Source: Candidatus Sericytochromatia bacterium
Lineage (GTDB): Bacteria; Cyanobacteriota; Sericytochromatia; UBA7694
DNA length: 64,000 nucleotides
NCBI GenBank assembly: GCA_018780035.1
Contig: JADMKE010000029.1
Location: 65,388-129,387, forward strand
Direction of reading: 5' to 3'
This document shows positions 158 through 19,786 of this stretch, piece after piece. The notes under the pieces were generated by a model. That model was not told the DNA's origin, did no database searches, and saw nothing but the letters and a program-made list of their open reading frames with translations. Each line of letters opens with the position of its first letter. Positions within the stretch are counted from its first letter, which is position 1. A program made the translations under genes and the position numbers.

Positions 158-256
158 GGGTTAACTCCCAAAAAGGTTATATTACTATTTGACAAAGTTG
201 ACTTGGCTACATTAAAAGAATAGTCTTTCATATCAAAATAAACTGCCGAATTTAGT

Positions 257-1573
257 TTAATTCCACCACGGAATGTCCCTTACTGAGCCAACAGTTAGGT
301 GTCTACACCGTATACGATGGTTTAACCACACATTTGTTTTTTCGTTAATCAAGAGCTTCATCGCTTCCCTGCAAATCTTAATCCCCCCTTTGTAAGGTTT
401 TAGTACGAGAAGATGATTCTCAACAGCAACAGGAGAGTCTCCAAGAACCAGTGTAACAACTGCTCTTTCTTTGTCTCTTGAACTCGATGTTCTTCTCACA
501 GTAAGAAAAGGAGGTAGAAAAACACGTTTGTAAAATTTTATTTTTGAGTCTAAATAATTTACATTTACTTCCCCTCCTGAAGGTAACAAACGACTATGTA
601 TGTAAGGATATTCCTCGCCAATTTCAGGATCGCGGTGTGGAACAACGGTACCTACTGAAACTTGAAATAGATCTCCAATAGTTTGACTTGTCGAATCCAT
701 TAACACGGAGCATAGCCAATTATAGTTTGAATTATTGATTTTTTGAGAACGTTTTGTTAAATGAATTATGAATACATCAACATCTGCATAATCATCGAAT
801 TTCCCAACTACTTCAATTGAGCTGACAGCAGCCATGGATGTTATGTGATTTCTCCATTTTTCATATCTTGATCCGGTACGGAGAACGTCAGGTAGAATTG
901 CAGCAATTTGAGATCCGGATTCAGCTTTTTCAATACATTCCGATAAAAAAATTGCTGCCATAGAAATCTTACCTCTTCCCCATGATGCTTTATGAACTTG
1001 ATGGTAGTAAGGTGGATTCAATACGTATAGAGATCTTCTATTAACTTTGCTCAAATACTCTATTCCGTCATTAATGGTAATATTTGGGAAAAGTTCGTCT
1101 TGATTAATTGTGTCAAAATCACAATACGAATTATGCCTTTGCATTGCTTCTAAAACTAATCGGTATTTGAGTGCTAAAATAAACTGAGGTACTACGTCTA
1201 CGCCATGTAAAATTTTTCCCCATTCATTTAAAGTTTTAGAAAGTGTATTCTGGAGAGGTAAAAAGCTAGATGCAGCAAGGAGAAGACTTCCAGCACCACA
1301 AGAGGGATCAATTATACTCAGATTATTTTTCAAAATATCTGAATAAGGCCTTAGGAGCCGTTGAGAAAGTTCTGTAGAAGTAAAAAATGCCCCCAGTGCT
1401 TGACGCTCTTTTAAGTCTAAGGAATTTCTTAACGATTTAGCAGCATCTCCGTTTAGTGCTGGCTCAATAAGAACTTTATATTTAACATCGATATTTTTAT
1501 TGCTTTTTAGTTTCTGGATTAATTCGCTTAATCCAATTGTGTAGTCAGAAAAATTATTCATCTCACTACCCAA
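257..1573 (-). CDS. Gamma-class N6-adenine DNA methyltransferase (Eco57I/TaqI-like MTase module with a C-terminal target-recognition region; no nuclease domain)
   Basis: Motif X FFTSTEL, motif I IIDPSCGAGSLLLAA, motif IV NPPY in gamma-class order. Post-NPPY region resembles the Eco57I-type MTase domain. AT-rich codon usage. Overlaps the upstream gene by 16 nt. Confidence 0.8.
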   Translation of the reverse strand: MGSEMNNFSDYTIGLSELIQKLKSNKNIDVKYKVLIEPALNGDAAKSLRNSLDLKERQALGAFFTSTELSQRLLRPYSDILKNNLSIIDPSCGAGSLLLAASSFLPLQNTLSKTLNEWGKILHGVDVVPQFILALKYRLVLEAMQRHNSYCDFDTINQDELFPNITINDGIEYLSKVNRRSLYVLNPPYYHQVHKASWGRGKISMAAIFLSECIEKAESGSQIAAILPDVLRTGSRYEKWRNHITSMAAVSSIEVVGKFDDYADVDVFIIHLTKRSQKINNSNYNWLCSVLMDSTSQTIGDLFQVSVGTVVPHRDPEIGEEYPYIHSRLLPSGGEVNVNYLDSKIKFYKRVFLPPFLTVRRTSSSRDKERAVVTLVLGDSPVAVENHLLVLKPYKGGIKICREAMKLLINEKTNVWLNHRIRCRHLTVGSVRDIPWWN

Positions 1574-2550
1574 ATAGCGTTAACAAGTTCTTCTCGTCTA
1601 AAGGATGAAGGTAAATCTATTTCATCAGGAATAAAAATTTTAGGAAATCTCCTACGCCTCTGACCAGTGTTTCTTGCACTTAAAGCATTTAAAATAACGT
1701 CAGGTTTTTGATGGATAATAGATTGAATGATAATTCCATAGGGGGATAGGTTTAGAATTGATTTTCCTCGGCCAGCCTTACTTTCATCAATTAGAATTTT
1801 AGCTAAAATGTCTGAATTTAAATCCAATAATTTTAATAAATCTTGAATATTTTTAGAAAGACGGATAATGTCTTGGGGAAGACTAGATTGCTCCCAATTT
1901 GACTTAACAAGATTAATTATTTTAATTAGTTCTTGTGTCTGTCGATCTGTCTTATTTGACAGCGCTACCTCAGAAATTTCATCAACAGCTGCCACAGCAG
2001 ACTCAGCATGTTCCAACATGGCTTTAACTTGGAATGCGACCCTTTGCCTAGCCCAACTTAAATTGTCATTTTTGTATATCAGATCATGTGTTGAGATTGA
2101 CCATGCATGTTGTAGAAATGTTTTTATCTGACATTCAAACTTTTTTCCTAACAATCCTGACGGAGGTAATGTTTCGTCATCGATCCATTCTACGTATAGC
2201 CTTAAATCGTCAAAGACAAAAGATTCTGGAGATTTATGGGTCAGACTATCCTCCTGAGGTCTTCGATATTTAAGTGTGAATAGGCTACAAATAAGGTCTT
2301 CAGCCTCTTTTATCGAATGGAAATTATTCACAACAATTGTACAGGCAAAGAAATCTTCCAAATCCTTGGGATTATCAAACCTTCCAGTCTCAAGCTTTTG
2401 AGCAAAACTTTCTAATTGTTTTACTCGACTTTCATAATGCCATCTTGGGTTTCTCTTAGAACTAATTAACTTATCAACTAGTTGTTGAAGTTCTTCGTAC
2501 ACTTTGACTTGATCAAGATACAAGTTTCTTACAGAAAGTGGTACCTTCAT
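1558..2550 (-). CDS. RelA/SpoT-family nucleotidyltransferase (small-alarmone-synthetase / toxSAS-like) with a roughly 170-aa uncharacterised C-terminal region
   Basis: SRVKQLESFAQKLETG matches the G-loop GRVKxxxSIxEKMxRRG. DFFACTIVV matches DIAGLRV. ECQIKTFLQHAWSISTHDLIYK matches EIQIRTLAMNFWATIEHSLNYKY of RelQ/RelA synthetase domains. Catalytic D and E are present. Its ATG is embedded in the ATGA overlap with the stop of the DUF262 gene. Confidence 0.6.
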   Translation of the reverse strand: MKVPLSVRNLYLDQVKVYEELQQLVDKLISSKRNPRWHYESRVKQLESFAQKLETGRFDNPKDLEDFFACTIVVNNFHSIKEAEDLICSLFTLKYRRPQEDSLTHKSPESFVFDDLRLYVEWIDDETLPPSGLLGKKFECQIKTFLQHAWSISTHDLIYKNDNLSWARQRVAFQVKAMLEHAESAVAAVDEISEVALSNKTDRQTQELIKIINLVKSNWEQSSLPQDIIRLSKNIQDLLKLLDLNSDILAKILIDESKAGRGKSILNLSPYGIIIQSIIHQKPDVILNALSARNTGQRRRRFPKIFIPDEIDLPSSFRREELVNAIWVVR

Positions 2551-3671
2551 TATTCACTTTCAACTTCTTCTTCAGAATTTTGCTCTTCTGGTAAAATCTG
2601 AGGTGGCTCTAAACCTAACAAAATACTAGATAATAGAGTATGCCGTGCTTTCCTCTGCGCTGGCTCAGTATTTGCACCAGTCACGTTATTTAAGTAAGCA
2701 AGTGGAGCAGCAAAACTTGATTCAGGTTGGGTCCTTAAAAACTGTTCCAAATTATCTTGTTCAATTTTTAGAGTCTGTACTTGCTTCATAAACGCAGCAA
2801 ATCGTTTAGCGGCCTCTTCATGACTAGGCAATTCAGAGTAGTTTAACGCTATTGCAAACCAAAGAGAAAAAAGATTATTTGATGATTTTGCATATTCTGA
2901 AACGCTTTGATTTGCTGTTTCCATTTGATTGATAAATGATTTTATCTGCTCAAAATGAATTATAAATTTTTCCTCATCAAAATCAACATCAGTCTCTGCT
3001 GGTAGTTCATATTTAGCGCACATTTCATCAATGAAATCTTGATCAAAACCGCGAATTTCCTTATTAATCATGAGTATCATAAGTTCTAAAATAAACTGGA
3101 CATCTTTCATTCTCTTGACTTTTGCTGTTGTTACAATTCCATAGTCTTTCCAGAATTGAGATTCTGCTTCTGCTTCAGCTGTATTTATTAACCACCCATC
3201 AAACATAGCGTGGCGCAATTCCTGACGCTCTAGTTTTAAAGAATTTCGGTTTAGTCGATCAAATACAGCGCTAATTAGCGTTCCTTCAACAATTTTAATG
3301 TATTCAACAGGAATTACGTAATCCCAGAATCTTCTTTTTAAATCATCATCTAATTGTGACCATTTTTTTCCGTTCAGTCTGGTATCACCAAACCCCTTAT
3401 CTATGACTATTTTATTTTGAGTGAATAGCAAGATTGTCTCAAGACGTTGTTTTCCATCCACAACCTCGTGAATATGAAGCCCATCTTTGAATACTTTATG
3501 AAGAAAAATAGCTGGACTGGGATAGCCTCGAAAAATCGAATCTAGAAAAAAACGTCGATCTTTTGGGCTCCATACACTTCTCCGTTGATATGGAGGATTT
3601 AAATCGAGTTGTGCATTTCTATTCAGATCAAGGAACCAACTAATATCCTGAGTTGTTACGCGTCTATCCAT
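2550..3671 (-). CDS. DUF262 (GmrS-like, ParB/Srx-fold NTPase) protein with a C-terminal helical region; no DUF1524/HNH domain
   Basis: N-terminal LNPPYQRRSVWSP and DGKQRLETI (QRxxVW and DGQQR hallmarks of DUF262). Strong SD (AGGAG) before the ATG at 3671. AT-rich. First gene of the three-gene operon. Confidence 0.75.
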   Translation of the reverse strand: MDRRVTTQDISWFLDLNRNAQLDLNPPYQRRSVWSPKDRRFFLDSIFRGYPSPAIFLHKVFKDGLHIHEVVDGKQRLETILLFTQNKIVIDKGFGDTRLNGKKWSQLDDDLKRRFWDYVIPVEYIKIVEGTLISAVFDRLNRNSLKLERQELRHAMFDGWLINTAEAEAESQFWKDYGIVTTAKVKRMKDVQFILELMILMINKEIRGFDQDFIDEMCAKYELPAETDVDFDEEKFIIHFEQIKSFINQMETANQSVSEYAKSSNNLFSLWFAIALNYSELPSHEEAAKRFAAFMKQVQTLKIEQDNLEQFLRTQPESSFAAPLAYLNNVTGANTEPAQRKARHTLLSSILLGLEPPQILPEEQNSEEEVESE

Positions 3672-3998
3672 TCGGGCTCCTGTATTTAAATAAAAATTAA
3701 TATTGTATTGTTATGTATGTAATTTAATTATCAACATTATATCAAAGGATAAGTGTATGGGGTTAATAAGTTTTCAAATATAGAAAATTTAAGAAATACT
3801 AATTTTTTCATCTCCCTGTAGGGATTCTCCCTTAAAGAATGTATCACATTTTCGCCTCAAAACCAGCTTTTCTGAATCATAGAACTGAGTTACTTATCCT
3901 TCACGAAACGCAAACCCTGCATGAGGAACAGGCCCAAGAGAAGGGGTTCACTTGGGCCTGACCAGAACGGAGAAAGCAGAATCAGAAGGGGATCACCA

Positions 3999-8795: not shown

Positions 8796-9671
8796 TCAAC
8801 CGAGTAACTCCACTGCCGAACGCAGTTTGCCGGGCTCGGTTTGGGCGTAGATCAAGGTCGTGTCGAGGCGGGAGTGGCCAAGCAGCTTGGAAATTTGCTC
8901 CAGCGGCGCGCCTTTGTCGAGCAATTGGGTAGCAAAGGTATGGCGCAGTTTATGCGGGCTGTAATTCTCAAGCCCAGCCTCTTTGAGCAGACCTTTGACG
9001 ATCTGCCGAAAGGCCCCGTAAGATATCCTCGCGCCTTTGTGGTTTTTGCCCATGCTGACAAACAGCGCTTCGGATTTGAGATAAGGCAGGGAAGACCTCA
9101 AACTGACCCATTCTTCGAGGGTGTAGATCAGCTTTTGACTGATCGGAATCAGGCGCTCTTTGTCGCCTTTGCCCACCACCCGCAATTGCCGGGTGTCCCA
9201 GAGAATATGTTCGAGATCGAGCATTTGCATCTCTCCAATACGCATACCTGTGTAAAAGAGGGTCTTGATCATGGTCATATTGCGGATCGCTTCGGGATCT
9301 TCGTAGCTCAAGGTCTCAAGCAGGTTTTTAACATCTTTTTCGGAGAGGTATTTGGGCAGGCGGCGCGGCAAACTGGGGGCCGAGAGATTGCCGGCTGGAT
9401 CGTCTTTGACAAATCCCCGGCGCTCGGCGTAATCGTAAAAGCGCTTGATGGCGATCAGGCGGCGGCGCACCGTGGTGGCCTTGAGGCTTTCCAGGGTGGC
9501 CATATACTGAAACAACTCACGCTCGCGCACAGCGATCAGCGGCTTTTCTAAAAAGGCTTCGACCAAACGCAAATCCGACTCATACGCTGTGAGCGTGTGT
9601 TTGCTCAGGCGGCGCTGGCGCAAAATATTGAGAAAATCGTCGATCGTAAAGACCTCTTCGGGGTTGGACAT
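8796..9671 (-). CDS. Tyrosine site-specific recombinase, XerC/XerD family
   Basis: N-terminal SAM-like LSKHTLTAYESDLRL. Catalytic region HKLRHTFATQLL...LLGHSRLDTTLIYAQ with the terminal Tyr. Confidence 0.8.
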   Translation of the reverse strand: MSNPEEVFTIDDFLNILRQRRLSKHTLTAYESDLRLVEAFLEKPLIAVRERELFQYMATLESLKATTVRRRLIAIKRFYDYAERRGFVKDDPAGNLSAPSLPRRLPKYLSEKDVKNLLETLSYEDPEAIRNMTMIKTLFYTGMRIGEMQMLDLEHILWDTRQLRVVGKGDKERLIPISQKLIYTLEEWVSLRSSLPYLKSEALFVSMGKNHKGARISYGAFRQIVKGLLKEAGLENYSPHKLRHTFATQLLDKGAPLEQISKLLGHSRLDTTLIYAQTEPGKLRSAVELLG

Positions 9672-9674
9672 GAC

Positions 9675-10160
9675 CTATTCTCCTGGCAATTGGTAGCTCG
9701 GGGGTGTTTCTGGGCGAAATTCGGGAAAGACATAAAGCATCACCCCATCGGGGCGGATATCCATTTGGGCCAATTGGGATGTGACCAGATCTTCAAGCAG
9801 GACTTTGCTCTGCTCCAGACTGAGCTGGGTTTCTGCCGCCACTTCGAGCAGACTCAATTCCCCTGCATGGCGTTTGGCCAAACTCAGAATCAGGCGGATT
9901 TGTTCGTCTTTGTGCAATTGCTGTCCGGGTGGAGTGGTTTTTCCAAAGCCCCAGCGGGCAAAAAAAAACGAGGCCAGGGTGGTGCCTGAAAACAAGATCA
10001 GCAGGGCAAAATCGACCCCCGCACTTTTTGATTCGTAAGCCTTCAAGCCAAAGAGATTGGCGATGGTCATCGCCACAAACATCAGACTGAACAGGGCTGA
10101 GCCCCCCCCGATCAGACCCAGGCCTTTGCGCAAGAGGGACGTGTTTGGATTTTCGGACAT
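9675..10160 (-). CDS. Hypothetical membrane protein
   Basis: Two or three predicted TM helices near the N-terminus. No recognisable motif. Confidence 0.35.
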   Translation of the reverse strand: MSENPNTSLLRKGLGLIGGGSALFSLMFVAMTIANLFGLKAYESKSAGVDFALLILFSGTTLASFFFARWGFGKTTPPGQQLHKDEQIRLILSLAKRHAGELSLLEVAAETQLSLEQSKVLLEDLVTSQLAQMDIRPDGVMLYVFPEFRPETPPSYQLPGE

Positions 10161-10256: not shown

Positions 10257-12250
10257 TCAGGCTTCAGAGGGAGGAAGGTCTGCTGGCGCTTCAGCTGGGA
10301 GTTGTTCGGCTTGGTCCGGGTGTGTGTGAAAGCGGGTATAGACCAAAGCCATGGCCAGGAGGCAGACCCCCAGGCCGACCAGAGAGAGGATTTTAAAGCC
10401 CAAACTCAATTGCTGAATATCATACAAAAACACGCGGATGCTGCTCAAAGCCAAGATGCCAATCCCCTGATAACGCAGCAGGCGCGCTTGCAAGAGAAAT
10501 CCCACTATCAAAATGGCACAGCCCAAAAGAATCCAAACAGCGGAGATCCAGCCTTCAGGCACCAGATAAAAAAACCAGCCCATCAGCCCCAAACTGGCGA
10601 TGATCCCCTGCCCTATTTGGATTTGAGGATTGTCACGTTGGATCGCCAGCCAGAATTGCAGCTGGAAAAGTGCCAATAAAAGGCCATGAATGAGTACCGC
10701 TGAAAGCTGAAAACCCTCAGCATACAACTGAAAATCGTAGCCCATCAGGAGGAGCAGGGTGCTCAGATTCAGCAAGAGAGCCGAACCCCTCAAGACGGGG
10801 CCAGAACTCAGCTTAAACCAGGTGGCATTGGCCAGGGCGGCAAAAAACAGGCCCTGATAGGGAGAGGTCAGGCTTTGGTCGATGGCCCGCGCGGCTGCGG
10901 TCAGAATCCAGAACCAAAGGGCGTCCGCCAGTTGAGGCGCGCGGGCAGAGAGAAAATGGGACCAACCCCAGGCTCCCAGGGCCAGTACCACCATCAGCAG
11001 CGCTGAAAGCAGCGGTTGCTGCTGATCAAATAAACTCCATTCGATCAACCCCAGGGCAATGCCCCAGGGCCATACATAGATTTTTTCCAGCGGGGAGGCC
11101 AAAGGGCTGGGGTGACACTGCAGCCGCCGGTAGACCAAAAACAGTTGGATTCCCAACCACAAGAGGCTGCCGCTCACCACCCACACCGCTGCCAGTTTGA
11201 GTTCCATATACAGGCTCAAACCCGAAAAACCCAGCAGCGAAAAGGCCAAAATGGGGGTGCCCCTGGCCCAGAGCGGTGTGTCTGGCTTCGTTTCGAGCAT
11301 TTCGCCCAAGACCGAATAGACGGTGCTGAAAATCAAGAGCGTGCCAAATCCCAGCAAGACCCTTTCGGGGTTGGCATTGTACCAAAAGAGATGCAAAATC
11401 CAGGTGCCAATCGCCCCGACCAGCCCCAGATAACCCCAGCCGCAGCGGCCAGCCACCAAGGCCAAACCCAGGCTGAGAAACAGATTGTAAAAGAGGGTAA
11501 TGCTGTCAAATTGCTGACTGAGCAAAGAGGTTAAAAAACCGAGCACAAAGGCCCGACTGGCCAAACTCTGGGATTTGCGTTTCAGGGCCAGATAGATAGC
11601 CAGCCCCACGACCCCCATCAGCAAAAGGCAGTCGGTCAGTTCTGAGAGGTGTGTGACTTTGCGGAAGTAGCTGAAATGGTAGGCCCCGTAGATCAGAAAA
11701 TAGAGCAGGGCGATGCCCCCACCCATCAAGGCATGAGACCAACTGCGATAGCGTTCCTTGCGCCCCATCCATTCACCCAGGCCCAAGAGGGTCAGGCTCG
11801 CGGTAAATCCGCTGAATAAGACTGACCAAGGCCCGAGCCAGCCTTCGGTATAAGCATAGCGGACAAACAGACCCAGCCCCATGATCAGAGCAAAAATACC
11901 CAAGAGACTGAACCCTTTTAAGCCAATCCAGTCTTCGTACTGTTTCAGCTCCCTTTTGGCTTTGCCGGCACTTTTGCCGGTGTGCAAAACCTGCTCCCAA
12001 GGAGAGGCTGAAACGGAGGTGGCTTCTTCAAAAACGGAGGTCTCGGGGCCTGGCGGGTTTTGGGATTCAGCTGTGGGATGCTTGATGTGTACATTTAGCT
12101 CAAGCCGGTTTAAACGCAATTCCAGCTGGTTTTGCCGTTGCCTCAACAGAGTTAACTCGCGCTGAATGGCTTTTATTTCTTTCTGCAAAGCGCCCTCCTT
12201 TCTTGCTTGAACCTGTGATTTGATACGTGGTTTCTGTGATTGGGTGTATT
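10257..12250 (-). CDS. Large polytopic membrane protein (DUF2339-like: N-terminal coiled coil followed by many TM helices); true start uncertain
   Basis: The ORF-track extension to 12482 runs antisense across tRNA-Trp (LRDSNPRHAVLETAVLPTELR is a tRNA read-through artefact). The real start must lie below about 12330, possibly a non-ATG start. Confidence 0.45.
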
Positions 12251-12337
12251 CTATGCTACCTATCTCAGCTTGGCAAATCGCTTTCTCATTGATAGCCCCT
12301 TCGCAGTGTGGTATCTTAAAAATATCTGTATTTATCT

Positions 12338-12410
12338 GCGTCCTTAGTTCAGTTGGTAGAACGGCGGTCTCCAAAACCGCATGTCGGGGGTTCGAGTCCC
12401 TCAGGGCGTG
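12338..12410 (+). tRNA. trnW: tRNA-Trp (anticodon CCA)
   Basis: Hand-folded cloverleaf: 7-bp acceptor GCGTCCT/AGGGCGT (two GU pairs), D arm GTTC/GAAC, anticodon stem GCGGT/ACCGC with loop CUCCAAA, T arm GGGGG-TTCGAGT-CCCTC. 73 nt. Canonical position upstream of secE-nusG. Confidence 0.85.
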
Positions 12411-12456
12411 CTTCATTTTCCTTCTGTTTAGACAAAGTATGTTATTATACATGCAT

Positions 12457-12478
12457 CCCCCCTCCCCCCCCTCTCCCA
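12457..12478. repeat. C-rich homopolymeric tract (cccccctccccccccctctccc) about 45 nt downstream of tRNA-Trp
   Basis: Read directly from the sequence. Confidence 0.5.
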
Positions 12479-12650
12479 ACACTCTTTAATTTTAATTTTT
12501 AAAGTTTGAATGTTAAAAAATGAATTTGAGATTGTTATTTAGACTGGTGGCCTTAAAGGGGTCAATGTGAGCGCACCTGAACGCTGACCAAATTATGTGT
12601 CGCAAAAAATTTCAAGGTGCGGCAGTTCATAAAGGAAACGTATAGCTCGA

Positions 12651-12952: not shown

Positions 12953-13504
12953 ATGATGAATCTTAATACGACAGAAACCCAGGGCAAACGCTGGTACGTG
13001 GTTCATACCTATTCCGGCCACGAGAGCAAGGTCAAACAAAACCTGATGCGCCGTTCTGAGTCCATGGGCATGGACAACCGGATTTTTAATATTGAAGTGC
13101 CCGAAGAAAAAGTCATCGAACTCAAAGATGGCAAACGCACCGAAAAAACCAAAAAGATTTTCCCCGGCTATGTGCTGGTAGAAATGATCCTCGACGACGA
13201 CTCCTGGCACGTCGTGCGCAATACCCCCGGCGTCACCAGCTTTGTGGGTGCGGGCAGCCGCCCGGTTCCCCTGAGCCCCCGTGAAGTCAAAAAGGTGCTC
13301 AAACGCGCCTCTTCCCGCAAAGCCCGGATCGAGTTCGATTACAAACTCGGCGACGAAGTCAAAATCACCAGCGGTCCTTTCCAGGACTTCAATGGCAAAA
13401 TTATCGAAGTCAGCCCCGAGCGTGGCAAGGTCAAAGTCTCTGTTTCGATCTTTGGCCGTTCCACACCTGTGGAGCTGGAATTTGGTCAGATTAACAAAGC
13501 TTGA
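12953..13504 (+). CDS. nusG: Transcription termination/antitermination factor NusG
   Basis: [14 protein letters not shown] domain and C-terminal KOW ([21 protein letters not shown]). Confidence 0.9.
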
Positions 13505-16484: not shown

Positions 16485-16514
16485 ATTAACCTGTTAACAA
16501 CGAGAAAACACCCA

Positions 16515-17507
16515 TTAACCATTCGTCAAGATATAATAGTTTTCTCTTTTGCGTTTGTGTTTGGTTTGAATTAATTCATTGTCATAAAACACACCGTAAA
16601 TATAATATTGATTATCACTGATTCTGTCATAGATAGCCATACCTTTGTAATCAGCTATCTGCCTCGTTCTGACATCACTATAATGAAAACGAATAAACCC
16701 AAAATCAACATAGGGTTTCAGTGAATTAAAAGACTCATATAAATTTGCTTTTTTTTGCTTGATTAATATCTCAGATGCATGTATGTGATAATTATTTTTA
16801 TTTTCTTCGTATTGCATCGGATTTGAAGCATTCATCCAATAAGACGGAGTATTGTGAGTCGGATTTTTTGCTTCACGCTCCAGAACACTTAAATTTTCTG
16901 GATATTTCCCTTGATCGAGGGCATAAGTTTCTAACATGATTTGTAAGTTATGCATATTTACTTTGACCATCGATTCTTTATTGCAACTACAGGCAAAAGC
17001 TGACATAAAAAACAAAGGATCAACAATAAAAGTTGTAAACATACAAAAAACAAATAGTATCCGTCTATACTTATTCAAGTAAATCATCAATATCCAGCCA
17101 AATATCAAAAAAAATCCTGTATAGGCAAATAGAGAAATAGTAGAAAAAAATAAGATTATACCCGGTAATGGATGAATTACATCTTCAATAATTCCAGGTA
17201 AAAAACGCATTTTTTTTCGCTTGCTATCTCTTTTCTTGAAATTTAAATCCATTCCATAGAGTAAAATTAGCAATATCATAAGTAAAATAAAATTTTCAAA
17301 ATTATGTTGGTAAATTGGTTTAAAATAATAATCGGGAGGAGCACAATGACAAGGGAGGTGATGAATACTTAGCCAATTGAATCGAAATATTGGAAACACA
17401 ACGCATAATATTGATAGATTAAACAAACCAAATTCATGAATATACTTATTCTTGTATAGTCTATTGATTAGATTCATATGTCTAAATGAGATACTGACCT
17501 CAAACAA
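16515..17507 (-). CDS. AT-rich polytopic membrane protein with a C-terminal GspG/pseudopilin-like segment
   Basis: Multiple TM helices in the first roughly 190 aa. KVNMHNLQIMLETYALDQGKYPENLSVL resembles the conserved LxxLExALxMYxLDNGxYPT region of type II secretion GspG / type IV pilins. Strongly AT-rich codon usage. Confidence 0.4.
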   Translation of the reverse strand: MFEVSISFRHMNLINRLYKNKYIHEFGLFNLSILCVVFPIFRFNWLSIHHLPCHCAPPDYYFKPIYQHNFENFILLMILLILLYGMDLNFKKRDSKRKKMRFLPGIIEDVIHPLPGIILFFSTISLFAYTGFFLIFGWILMIYLNKYRRILFVFCMFTTFIVDPLFFMSAFACSCNKESMVKVNMHNLQIMLETYALDQGKYPENLSVLEREAKNPTHNTPSYWMNASNPMQYEENKNNYHIHASEILIKQKKANLYESFNSLKPYVDFGFIRFHYSDVRTRQIADYKGMAIYDRISDNQYYIYGVFYDNELIQTKHKRKRENYYILTNG

Positions 17508-18261: not shown

Positions 18262-18350
18262 GACTTCTGGGTGGAAATTATCAAAGTTGTTCAATAACCC
18301 GTTGGAATCTCTTTCAGATTAGAATGATATATTAAAATAATGGTTAATTT

Positions 18351-19688
18351 ATGATTAAAAAATACAATATTTTGTTGTTGTTTTGTATTTTTGAGATTTT
18401 TTCTCAATCTTCTTGTATTTCTTTGGGTGTTATTAATTATGAATTGGAATCTATTTCACTAGATCGGGGGTTGGAACATCTTAAAAAGAAAGAATATAAC
18501 CAAGCCATACAAGCTTTTCAAGTCAAACTACAAATTAACCCCAAAGATATTGATACTTATATTTGGTTGGCCACCGCTTATGATGATCAAGGCGATAAAG
18601 ATGCTGCTCTCCAAACACTGAAAAAAGTATTGGAATTAGAACCAAACCATATCAGTGCCAATATGCGTTTGGGATACGTGTATTATAAAAAAGCAGATTA
18701 CAAAAATGCCTTAGTAGCGTTCAAAAAAACTGCAGAATTAGATCCGAAAAATACTGAAAATCTAAAATTTTTAGGCAGTACTAGTTTTTATTTGGACGAT
18801 AATGTATCTGCGAAAGAATATTTTTTAAAATATGAATCACTTGAAGAAAATCCTTCTGCAAATACTTTAGGAACTATATGTGCCAATTACTTTAATTTAA
18901 AAGAGTTTGAACAAGCTAAAATATACGCAGAAAAATCAATAAAAACTGACCCATCTGTTTCTTTGGCTTATTTTATTTTAGGTGGCTATTTTTATCAGAA
19001 AAGAGATAATGAAAATGCAGAAAAAAATTTCAAATTAGCTGAAATAAATAGTAAAGGAGAAAGCGTAAATGCTATTTATTACTTGGGGAAATTATATTTT
19101 GAAAAAAAACGCTTTCAATCAGCTTTTGATTATTTCTCAAAACTACCTTCAAGTTATCGAGACACAGAGAAATTAAAACAGGAATCTGAAAAAAAACTAG
19201 AAGAACTAGCTTCAAAAAACTATTTAAAAACATATTTTGAAAATGTTTTTAGTGCTTATGATCTAAATGTTTCTGAGCCACAATCCAGCATGAGCTGTTT
19301 GTCAGATACCTCTGGATTGATTGAAAAACAGGAGTTAAAATCTGTTATTACTAACTATATCAAGTCACAAGGGACTCTTGATTTAAAAAAAATCATATTT
19401 GTTGAAGAGTTAAACGAATACAAGGGGCATAAATATCAACCTTACCATTATATTTTGAGAGCAAAAGTCTTAGAGTCAAAAAATTTTAATGAAACAGAAA
19501 TGGCCTTGCTCGATGCCGTTCAAAAGGCTGTTTTAGTTGGCATTATAAATGGTGTGCCTTGTAAATTTAATAATCACTATGATAAAGCCTCTTCCCAAAA
19601 CAGAAGTTACGATGATTATTTTTTTATTAACTTTATCCCAACAAATCTTCTTTTAAAATATGATTTGTCTATAAAAAAACAAAATTAG
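18351..19688 (+). CDS. AT-rich TPR-repeat protein with N-terminal signal/lipoprotein-like sequence
   Basis: LLLFCIFEIFSQSSC. Multiple TPR units (AIQAFQVKLQINPKD, AALQTLKKVLELEPNH, ALVAFKKTAELDPKN). Very AT-rich. Confidence 0.7.
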   Translation: MIKKYNILLLFCIFEIFSQSSCISLGVINYELESISLDRGLEHLKKKEYNQAIQAFQVKLQINPKDIDTYIWLATAYDDQGDKDAALQTLKKVLELEPNHISANMRLGYVYYKKADYKNALVAFKKTAELDPKNTENLKFLGSTSFYLDDNVSAKEYFLKYESLEENPSANTLGTICANYFNLKEFEQAKIYAEKSIKTDPSVSLAYFILGGYFYQKRDNENAEKNFKLAEINSKGESVNAIYYLGKLYFEKKRFQSAFDYFSKLPSSYRDTEKLKQESEKKLEELASKNYLKTYFENVFSAYDLNVSEPQSSMSCLSDTSGLIEKQELKSVITNYIKSQGTLDLKKIIFVEELNEYKGHKYQPYHYILRAKVLESKNFNETEMALLDAVQKAVLVGIINGVPCKFNNHYDKASSQNRSYDDYFFINFIPTNLLLKYDLSIKKQN

Positions 19689-19786
19689 TATCAAAAATAT
19701 TTTTTAAGCAATTTAAGGTTGTGAACAGCTAAGCAAAGGAACTTGTAAGTACCTCAACCCATCATCGTCCACAAGGATATCAAGCC

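Follow-up and report, generated by a model that had tools for sequence, protein, structure and literature searches.

How is a protein of the RelA/SpoT fold regulated when its neighbours are a DUF262 gene and a DNA methyltransferase gene rather than the gene of a small antitoxin? This question is raised by a 330-amino-acid open reading frame (ORF), located exactly at 1558..2550 on the minus strand of a 64,000-nucleotide stretch of Candidatus Sericytochromatia DNA (contig JADMKE010000029.1, positions 65,388 to 129,387; hereafter the window), where it is the second of three genes in a compact minus-strand operon. A first-pass annotation, made from the sequence alone, had described its product (hereafter Rel) as a stand-alone RelA/SpoT-fold protein with intact catalytic motifs, a large uncharacterised C-terminal domain and an architecture like that of CapRel, a fused toxin-antitoxin protein. 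We found that Rel is obligately paired and co-evolves with the DUF262 protein encoded directly upstream, and that the pair is linked to methyltransferase and restriction-modification (R-M) genes across a wide range of prokaryotes. The analogy with CapRel should thus be replaced by that of a methylase-coupled module with a DUF262 sensor and a RelA/SpoT-like effector, and the sequence data suggest that DUF262-Rel, together with methylase or restriction genes, represents an undescribed anti-phage module.

Rel belongs to the RelA/SpoT homologue (RSH) synthetase-domain superfamily. Residues 41-162 match the Pfam family RelA_SpoT (PF04607) with an E value of 2e-09, above the gathering score, and Foldseek searches against PDB returned the small alarmone synthetases SAS1, SAS2 and RelP as top matches (E = 7e-08; TM score 0.72, normalised to target length). 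Similarity by sequence to the toxSAS (toxic small alarmone synthetase) enzymes was marginal (E about 0.005-0.03 against PDB chains), and no NCBIfam model matched the protein. A full-length AlphaFold2 model built on 40 homologues reached a mean predicted local distance difference test score (pLDDT) of 86.9 and a predicted template modelling score (pTM) of 0.59, with pLDDT values of 65-73 at residues 150-200; the orientation of the two domains in this model is unreliable and was not used for or against autoinhibition.

Conservation of the active site was assessed by aligning 312 full-length relatives. The acidic pair, D66 in motif 2 and E139 in the EVQIKT motif, is conserved in 100% of these sequences, while R42, K44 and K52 of motif 1 (Syn1), Q141 and T144 of the EVQIKT motif, and H155, Y159 and K160 of the HAW..H..YK motif are each conserved in 99-100%; the conserved catalytic residues align with the corresponding motifs of RelQ and CapRel. 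Conservation of the active-site residues to this extent points to selection for catalysis and implies a working enzyme. The first-pass annotation had named the lack of a RelA/SpoT fold, or of the conserved Asp/Glu pair, as grounds on which its assignment would fail, and we found both the fold and the pair to be present.

The same alignment qualifies the claim of intact catalytic motifs, which stands for the acidic pair, for EVQIKT, for HAW..H..YK and for R42, K44 and K52, and falls for two others. The canonical DxxGxR motif, with its adenine-stacking Arg, reads EDFFACT in Rel; Thr replaces the Arg in 81% of the relatives, and Arg itself falls outside the four most frequent residues at this position. 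The acceptor loop (G-loop) GY..H is replaced by F111-x-F113-D114-D115-x-R117 (FxFDDxR). Because both the donor and the acceptor motifs are altered, the chemistry of Rel may differ from that of the (p)ppGpp, (p)ppApp and tRNA pyrophosphokinases, and the altered motifs suggest a substrate or a reaction so far undescribed for the RelA/SpoT fold.

The uncharacterised C-terminal domain held up as described; no Pfam family matched it. Residues ~194-330 are kept family-wide, including W219, P225, G262 and an NLSPYG motif, and when modelled alone this domain was predicted as five helices with a small beta element (pLDDT 88.5, pTM 0.81). It is a candidate interface with the DUF262 protein or with the substrate.

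Relatives of Rel are numerous, with 1705 matches in a 90%-clustered protein database and, in a 50%-clustered library, 167 representatives at E < 1e-30 and 478 at E < 1e-10; nearly all are 315-335 amino acids long. Rel itself is 100% identical to an NCBI "hypothetical protein" of a Candidatus Sericytochromatia metagenome-assembled genome (MAG), and relatives are annotated by JGI (Joint Genome Institute) as "ppGpp synthetase/RelA/SpoT-type nucleotidyltransferase". For a survey of gene neighbourhoods we used one genome per species, which yielded 80 loci, of which one was cut by a contig end, leaving 79 informative loci. The 80 loci come from Acidobacteriota, Bacteroidota, Planctomycetota, Desulfobacterota, Nitrospirota, Chloroflexota, Actinomycetota, Alpha-, Beta- and Gammaproteobacteria, Verrucomicrobiota and Gemmatimonadota, as well as from Thermoplasmata and Nitrosopelagicus. 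Cultured carriers include Pedobacter steynii DSM 19110, Myroides indicus DSM 28213, Breznakibacter xylanolyticus DSM 6779, Microvirga and Mesorhizobium species and a conjugative Rhizobium plasmid. Seven plasmid records contained a match to Rel. A phage origin of the gene was rejected, as matches were found in 0 of 50,697 INPHARED phage records and in 3 of 2.9 million IMG/VR contigs. The sole PADLOC match of Rel, to the single-gene candidate PDC-S33, was weak, and PHROGs gave only families of unknown function.

The survey shows that Rel does not stand alone, contrary to what had been proposed for it. A DUF262 orthologue (E = 1e-85 to 1e-123) was found directly upstream and on the same strand in 79 of the 79 informative loci, and the distance between the DUF262 stop and the Rel start ranged from -26 to +14 nucleotides in 73 of 76 loci, usually with an overlap of stop and start; the two genes are translationally coupled. 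Moreover, the matrices of pairwise identities of the DUF262 and Rel proteins were strongly correlated (r = 0.84), a value reached by none of 999 Mantel permutations. Overall, the two proteins co-evolve and their pairing is obligate. A DUF262 gene also precedes Rel in four additional loci, i.e., on the Rhizobium conjugative plasmid and on three IMG/VR contigs, although on two of these three contigs DUF262 is present as two ORFs.

The DUF262 protein of the window looks, by its sequence, like an active sensor subunit. It matches the Pfam family GmrSD_N (E = 2e-20, residues 23-156) and the PADLOC profiles NsnA (E = 4e-34, residues 13-301) and PD-T4-2_A (E = 9e-21, residues 16-297), and its ParB-like NTPase motifs (PxYQRRxVW, VVDGKQR, QELRHA) do not vary among 77 orthologues. 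A helical DNA-binding (ParBDB-like) region was assigned from the extent of the NsnA profile rather than from a structural test. NsnA and PD-T4-2_A are the respective DUF262 subunits of Menshen and PD-T4-2, both validated as defence systems. NsnA has been proposed as a sensor (PMC12065111, PMC10952713), and the partner subunits in the two systems are predicted nucleases, i.e., a HEPN protein in PD-T4-2 (PMC10952713) and an inPIN-BECR protein in Menshen (PMC12065111).

The other partner in the window, encoded by the third gene, is a predicted DNA methyltransferase with matches to Pfam N6_Mtase (E = 1e-05) and PADLOC MTase_II (E = 2e-11), whose translation carries the motifs DPSCGAGS and NPPY. 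The first-pass annotation had noted the company of a DUF262 gene and a methyltransferase gene in place of a small antitoxin, and this unusual context proved to be conserved. When flanking ORFs were clustered, only three recurrent groups, which we named by Pfam, were found: N6-adenine methylases of the Eco57I/N6_Mtase type, restriction endonucleases of the BsuBI/PstI type, and type IIG enzymes of the Eco57I type (~995 amino acids) with M.Eco57I, plus a helix-turn-helix (HTH) controller protein. Scored within 4.5 kb of the DUF262-Rel pair, an N6-adenine methyltransferase, a restriction enzyme or both were present in 74 of the 79 loci. A methyltransferase was accompanied by a restriction enzyme (BsuBI/PstI type or Eco57I-type IIG), sometimes with an HTH controller, in 39 loci, and occurred without a recognisable restriction enzyme in 30. 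Another five loci scored for a restriction enzyme only; four of these represent ORFs of ~830-860 amino acids, and the one tested with Pfam (L016) is a fusion of methyltransferase and restriction enzyme. Neither kind of gene was found in the remaining five loci, three of which lie on contigs shorter than 4.4 kb. Moreover, 68-70% of the nearest relatives of DUF262 and Rel proteins shared their R-M class, as compared to 18% expected by chance.

At 19 other loci, the DUF262-Rel pair lies next to an orthologue of the methyltransferase of the window (E = 1e-67 to 1e-99), with the gene order methyltransferase-DUF262-Rel as compared to DUF262-Rel-methyltransferase in the window. These 19 cassettes contained no further conserved gene; the unit of this class thus consists of exactly three genes and is nuclease-free. 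Nuclease and ATPase genes are absent both from the methyltransferase-only cassettes and from the operon of the window. Likewise, no restriction endonuclease homologue was found in the three-gene island of the window by ORF list, Pfam or PADLOC. In other loci, including that of the Rhizobium plasmid NZ_CP064190, a convergent methyltransferase gene overlaps the 3' end of Rel. No conserved small, antitoxin-like ORF was found beside the pair, the only conserved neighbours being the DUF262 and the methyltransferase or R-M genes, and no genes beyond the R-M genes recurred in the neighbourhoods. The remaining neighbours are heterogeneous and comprise housekeeping genes, a few integrases or transposases and occasional other defence genes. 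The cassette is mobile: its varied neighbours, together with the low guanine-plus-cytosine (GC) content of the island in the window, fit a horizontally moving unit.

Among known systems, the nearest on the effector side are the toxSAS enzymes, which include tRNA 3'-pyrophosphokinases (CapRel, FaRel2, PhRel2) and (p)ppApp synthetases (FaRel, Tas1). Unlike these, Rel has as its invariant partner a DUF262 nucleoside triphosphatase (NTPase) of 370 amino acids in place of a small antitoxin, lacks the Gly-x-Arg of motif 2 and carries FxFDDxR as its acceptor loop. On the sensor side, the locus shares with GmrSD/BrxU, SspE, PD-T4-2 and Menshen a ParB-DUF262 gene with an intact DGxQR motif and the combination of a DUF262 sensor with a separate or fused effector (PMC12065111, PMC10952713). 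The sensor match to PD-T4-2 (DUF262 plus HEPN) and Menshen (NsnA plus an ABC ATPase plus an inPIN-nuclease) extends over ~290 residues, and, as in SspABCD-SspE, the sensor is coupled to a DNA-modification module, with an N6-adenine methylase as the modification partner here. In contrast to these DUF262 defence systems, the effector is a RelA/SpoT-like protein rather than a nuclease (DUF1524/HNH, HEPN or BECR), and no ABC ATPase is present. The cassette also resembles type II R-M systems of the PstI/BsuBI and Eco57I families in its gamma-class N6-adenine methyltransferase and differs from them in that the window and ~30 other loci are devoid of a restriction endonuclease, with DUF262 and Rel as the conserved genes besides the methyltransferase gene. 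The R-M-linked Rlo and PrrC modules described so far are not known to include a RelA/SpoT domain. R-M loci are known to carry DUF262 genes (RloF) as passengers (PMC4619093). The pairing of DUF262 with a RelA/SpoT-like protein is not represented by a PADLOC v2 model, and no description of it was found in the searchable literature, a search outside which most subscription journals lie; all co-mentions that we checked were incidental (e.g., "spot assay").

The best-supported model by analogy takes its sensor side from SspABCD-SspE, GmrSD, PD-T4-2 and Menshen and its effector side from toxSAS. According to this model, Rel would be the effector of a DUF262 sensor module carried on mobile methyltransferase or R-M cassettes and would serve in anti-phage defence, a proposal that we regard as an even bet. 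The methyltransferase would mark host DNA as self, and the DUF262 protein, with its NTPase and putative DNA-binding domains, would restrain (rather than activate) Rel and read the status of the DNA. Foreign or unmarked DNA, or another cue of infection, may then cause an NTP-dependent switch of the DUF262 protein that releases or activates its partner; Rel, in turn, would use ATP to pyrophosphorylate an acceptor, either a nucleotide or, as in toxSAS, the 3' end of tRNA. This modification would be toxic, leading to an arrest of growth or translation, and the infection would be aborted. For cassettes with a methyltransferase only, DUF262-Rel may form the "restriction" arm of a nuclease-free R-M system, in which N6-adenine methylation marks self and the detection of unmarked incoming DNA by the ParB-like NTPase leads, in place of cleavage, to the activation of a RelA/SpoT-family pyrophosphokinase; such an enzyme, with its non-canonical acceptor site, might shut the cell down or block the 3' end of a nucleic acid. 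We hold this variant tentatively and consider it somewhat unlikely.

Several observations weigh against an anti-phage effector of this kind. Sensing of modified DNA, as by the DUF262 proteins of GmrSD and Dazbog, would be odd beside a methylase. The family-wide replacement of the DxxGxR Arg and of the acceptor-loop Tyr and His makes both the pyrophosphokinase chemistry and the substrate uncertain. Moreover, the catalytic domain of the Rel family is not basic (median isoelectric point 6.5), unlike the known tRNA-targeting toxSAS enzymes, and thus gives no pointer to tRNA. Where a bona fide restriction enzyme already exists, as in about half of the loci, an "R" arm made of DUF262-Rel is not required. 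The R-M association could also partly reflect the clustering of genes in defence islands, and a linkage to R-M genes is known for DUF262 genes in general (PMC4619093). The chemical points agree with an alternative in which Rel is not a growth-arrest effector but assists the R-M or methylation cassette as an enzyme without toxicity, for example as a nucleotidyltransferase acting on DNA ends or nucleotides, or as the source of a signal that tunes restriction and methylation: its donor and acceptor motifs are unlike those of all characterised (p)ppGpp, (p)ppApp and tRNA pyrophosphokinases, its catalytic domain is not basic, its association with DNA-acting proteins is constant, and one metagenomic protein (P0174) fuses an N-terminal methyltransferase fragment to a RelA/SpoT-like domain. 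We nevertheless consider an accessory role quite unlikely.

An addiction function must be weighed as well. DUF262-Rel may be a toxin-antitoxin pair, with DUF262 as the antitoxin, that stabilises or guards the R-M cassette in a PrrC-like manner and does not read methylation. The tight coupling of two genes by overlapping stop and start codons, the mobility of the cassette and its varied genomic settings, and the co-transcription of the pair downstream of methyltransferase and restriction genes in many loci would all suit such a pair, and toxSAS enzymes are classically type II toxins (PMC5512222). However, typical antitoxins are far simpler than an NTPase of 370 amino acids that combines invariant catalytic motifs with a putative DNA-binding domain, and DUF262 homologues are sensors in defence systems; we consider this alternative, which overlaps with the sensor-effector mechanism and differs from it mainly in the trigger, unlikely. 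In the CapRel-type architecture put forward by the first-pass annotation, the C-terminal domain would act as an antitoxin and phage-protein sensor that gates a toxic synthetase, with the DUF262 and methyltransferase genes as mere neighbours. Homology of the C-terminal domain to the antitoxin (pseudo-zinc-finger) domain of CapRel was tested and not found, and Rel lacks the autonomy of a single-gene system. As the pairing with DUF262 is constant, regulation by the DUF262 protein is far more likely than an intramolecular switch, and the CapRel-type explanation is highly doubtful. Finally, Rel could have a part in the stringent response as a housekeeping small alarmone synthetase, in line with the RelQ/RelP type of its best structural matches and with the JGI label of its relatives. 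Its location in a low-GC island, the patchy, horizontally transferred distribution of the family over many bacterial phyla and archaea, the obligate link to DUF262 and R-M genes, and an altered guanine-binding loop along with the lack of an NCBIfam match all argue against a housekeeping role, which is extremely improbable.

If the proposed sensor-effector module is real, it would add a widespread entry (at least 1,700 sequence clusters in many bacterial phyla and some archaea) to the catalogue of prokaryotic immunity and would join two separate fields, i.e., toxic pyrophosphokinases of the RelA/SpoT type and R-M-coupled DNA-modification sensors of the DUF262/ParB-like type. An NTPase that senses DNA would represent a third route of regulation for toxSAS-like enzymes, beside small antitoxins and the fused sensor of CapRel, and Rel would represent a new class of effector for DUF262 sensors; the module would also be a possible case of methylation-gated abortive infection without a nuclease. 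The cultured carriers (Pedobacter, Myroides, Breznakibacter, Microvirga, Mesorhizobium and the Rhizobium plasmid) make this idea testable.

The layout of the locus in the window is summarised in Table 1. The DUF262 gene encodes 373 amino acids, and its TAA stop codon shares base 2550 with the ATG of Rel; the methyltransferase gene encodes 434 amino acids, its ATG at 1561 forming an ATGA overlap with the stop codon of Rel, with an alternative TTG start at 1573. According to the ORF list, unrelated chromosomal genes flank the three-gene island on both sides.

Table 1. Positions of the features of the three-gene island within the window
Feature	Position	Strand	Remarks
Three-gene low-GC island	170..3900		~36% GC as compared to ~52% in the flanks; from composition profile and sequence
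Gamma-class N6-adenine DNA methyltransferase gene	257..1561	-	Third operon gene; from Pfam, PADLOC and motifs
Rel, family-specific C-terminal helical domain (residues ~194-330) and stop codon	1558..1971	-	
Rel, N-terminal nucleotidyltransferase (synthetase-fold) domain (residues 1 to ~193)	1972..2550	-	
DUF262/ParB-like NTPase gene, with NsnA-like C-terminal region	2550..3671	-	First operon gene; proposed DNA sensor/regulator
AT-rich intergenic region upstream of the operon	3672..3900	-	Presumed promoter; read from sequence

A scan for promoters and terminators revealed none above chance level, the single sigma-70-like match, at 3734-3707, being weak. A 22-nucleotide inverted repeat (3570-3591 and 3739-3760; arms 91% complementary and separated by 147 nucleotides) straddles the DUF262 start codon and the region upstream of it; a regulatory role is conceivable, as is a coincidental match within AT-rich sequence. 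A search of the island borders for repeats, integration sites and tRNA genes revealed only repeats at chance level, the sole tRNA gene (tRNA-Trp) lying 8 kb away.

Deviating architectures were seen at a few loci. The metagenomic protein P0174 (496 amino acids) joins an N-terminal N6_Mtase fragment (residues 22-151) to a RelA/SpoT-like part (residues 179-454) with no DUF262 in between; this fusion may be genuine, or it may have arisen through a deletion or as an artefact of assembly. In a Bryobacterales MAG (L045, 7959-10649), the RelA/SpoT-like ORF comprises 896 amino acids, with an extension of ~570 amino acids without a Pfam match after the Rel part, and the upstream DUF262 gene is in two ORFs; this may represent a decaying locus or a variant architecture. 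An Acidobacteria MAG (L060) has a second, distant RelA/SpoT-like ORF of 205 amino acids (9068-9685, minus strand; E = 2e-07 to the protein of the window) ~0.9 kb downstream of its DUF262-Rel pair. Among the IMG/VR contigs, the two pieces of DUF262 are ~1.7 kb apart in L082 (3264-5998), while L084 (5050-5852) carries DUF262 as two ORFs.

Further along the window, the tRNA-Trp gene at 12338-12411 (plus strand), the only tRNA gene present, is overlapped by the 5' end of a 741-amino-acid ORF at 10257-12482 (minus strand) and followed by the NusG gene at 12953-13504. As the N-terminal translation of this predicted membrane protein is antisense to the tRNA, its real start is probably further downstream. 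Two more patches of low GC content, 16500-17500 and 18350-19700, show 28-32% GC as compared to ~52-60% in their surroundings; the former holds an ORF of 330 amino acids without a Pfam match (16515..17507, minus strand) and the latter a tetratricopeptide-repeat (TPR) protein of 445 amino acids (18351..19688, plus strand), with a DUF1993 gene between the two patches. These patches may represent additional horizontally acquired islands.

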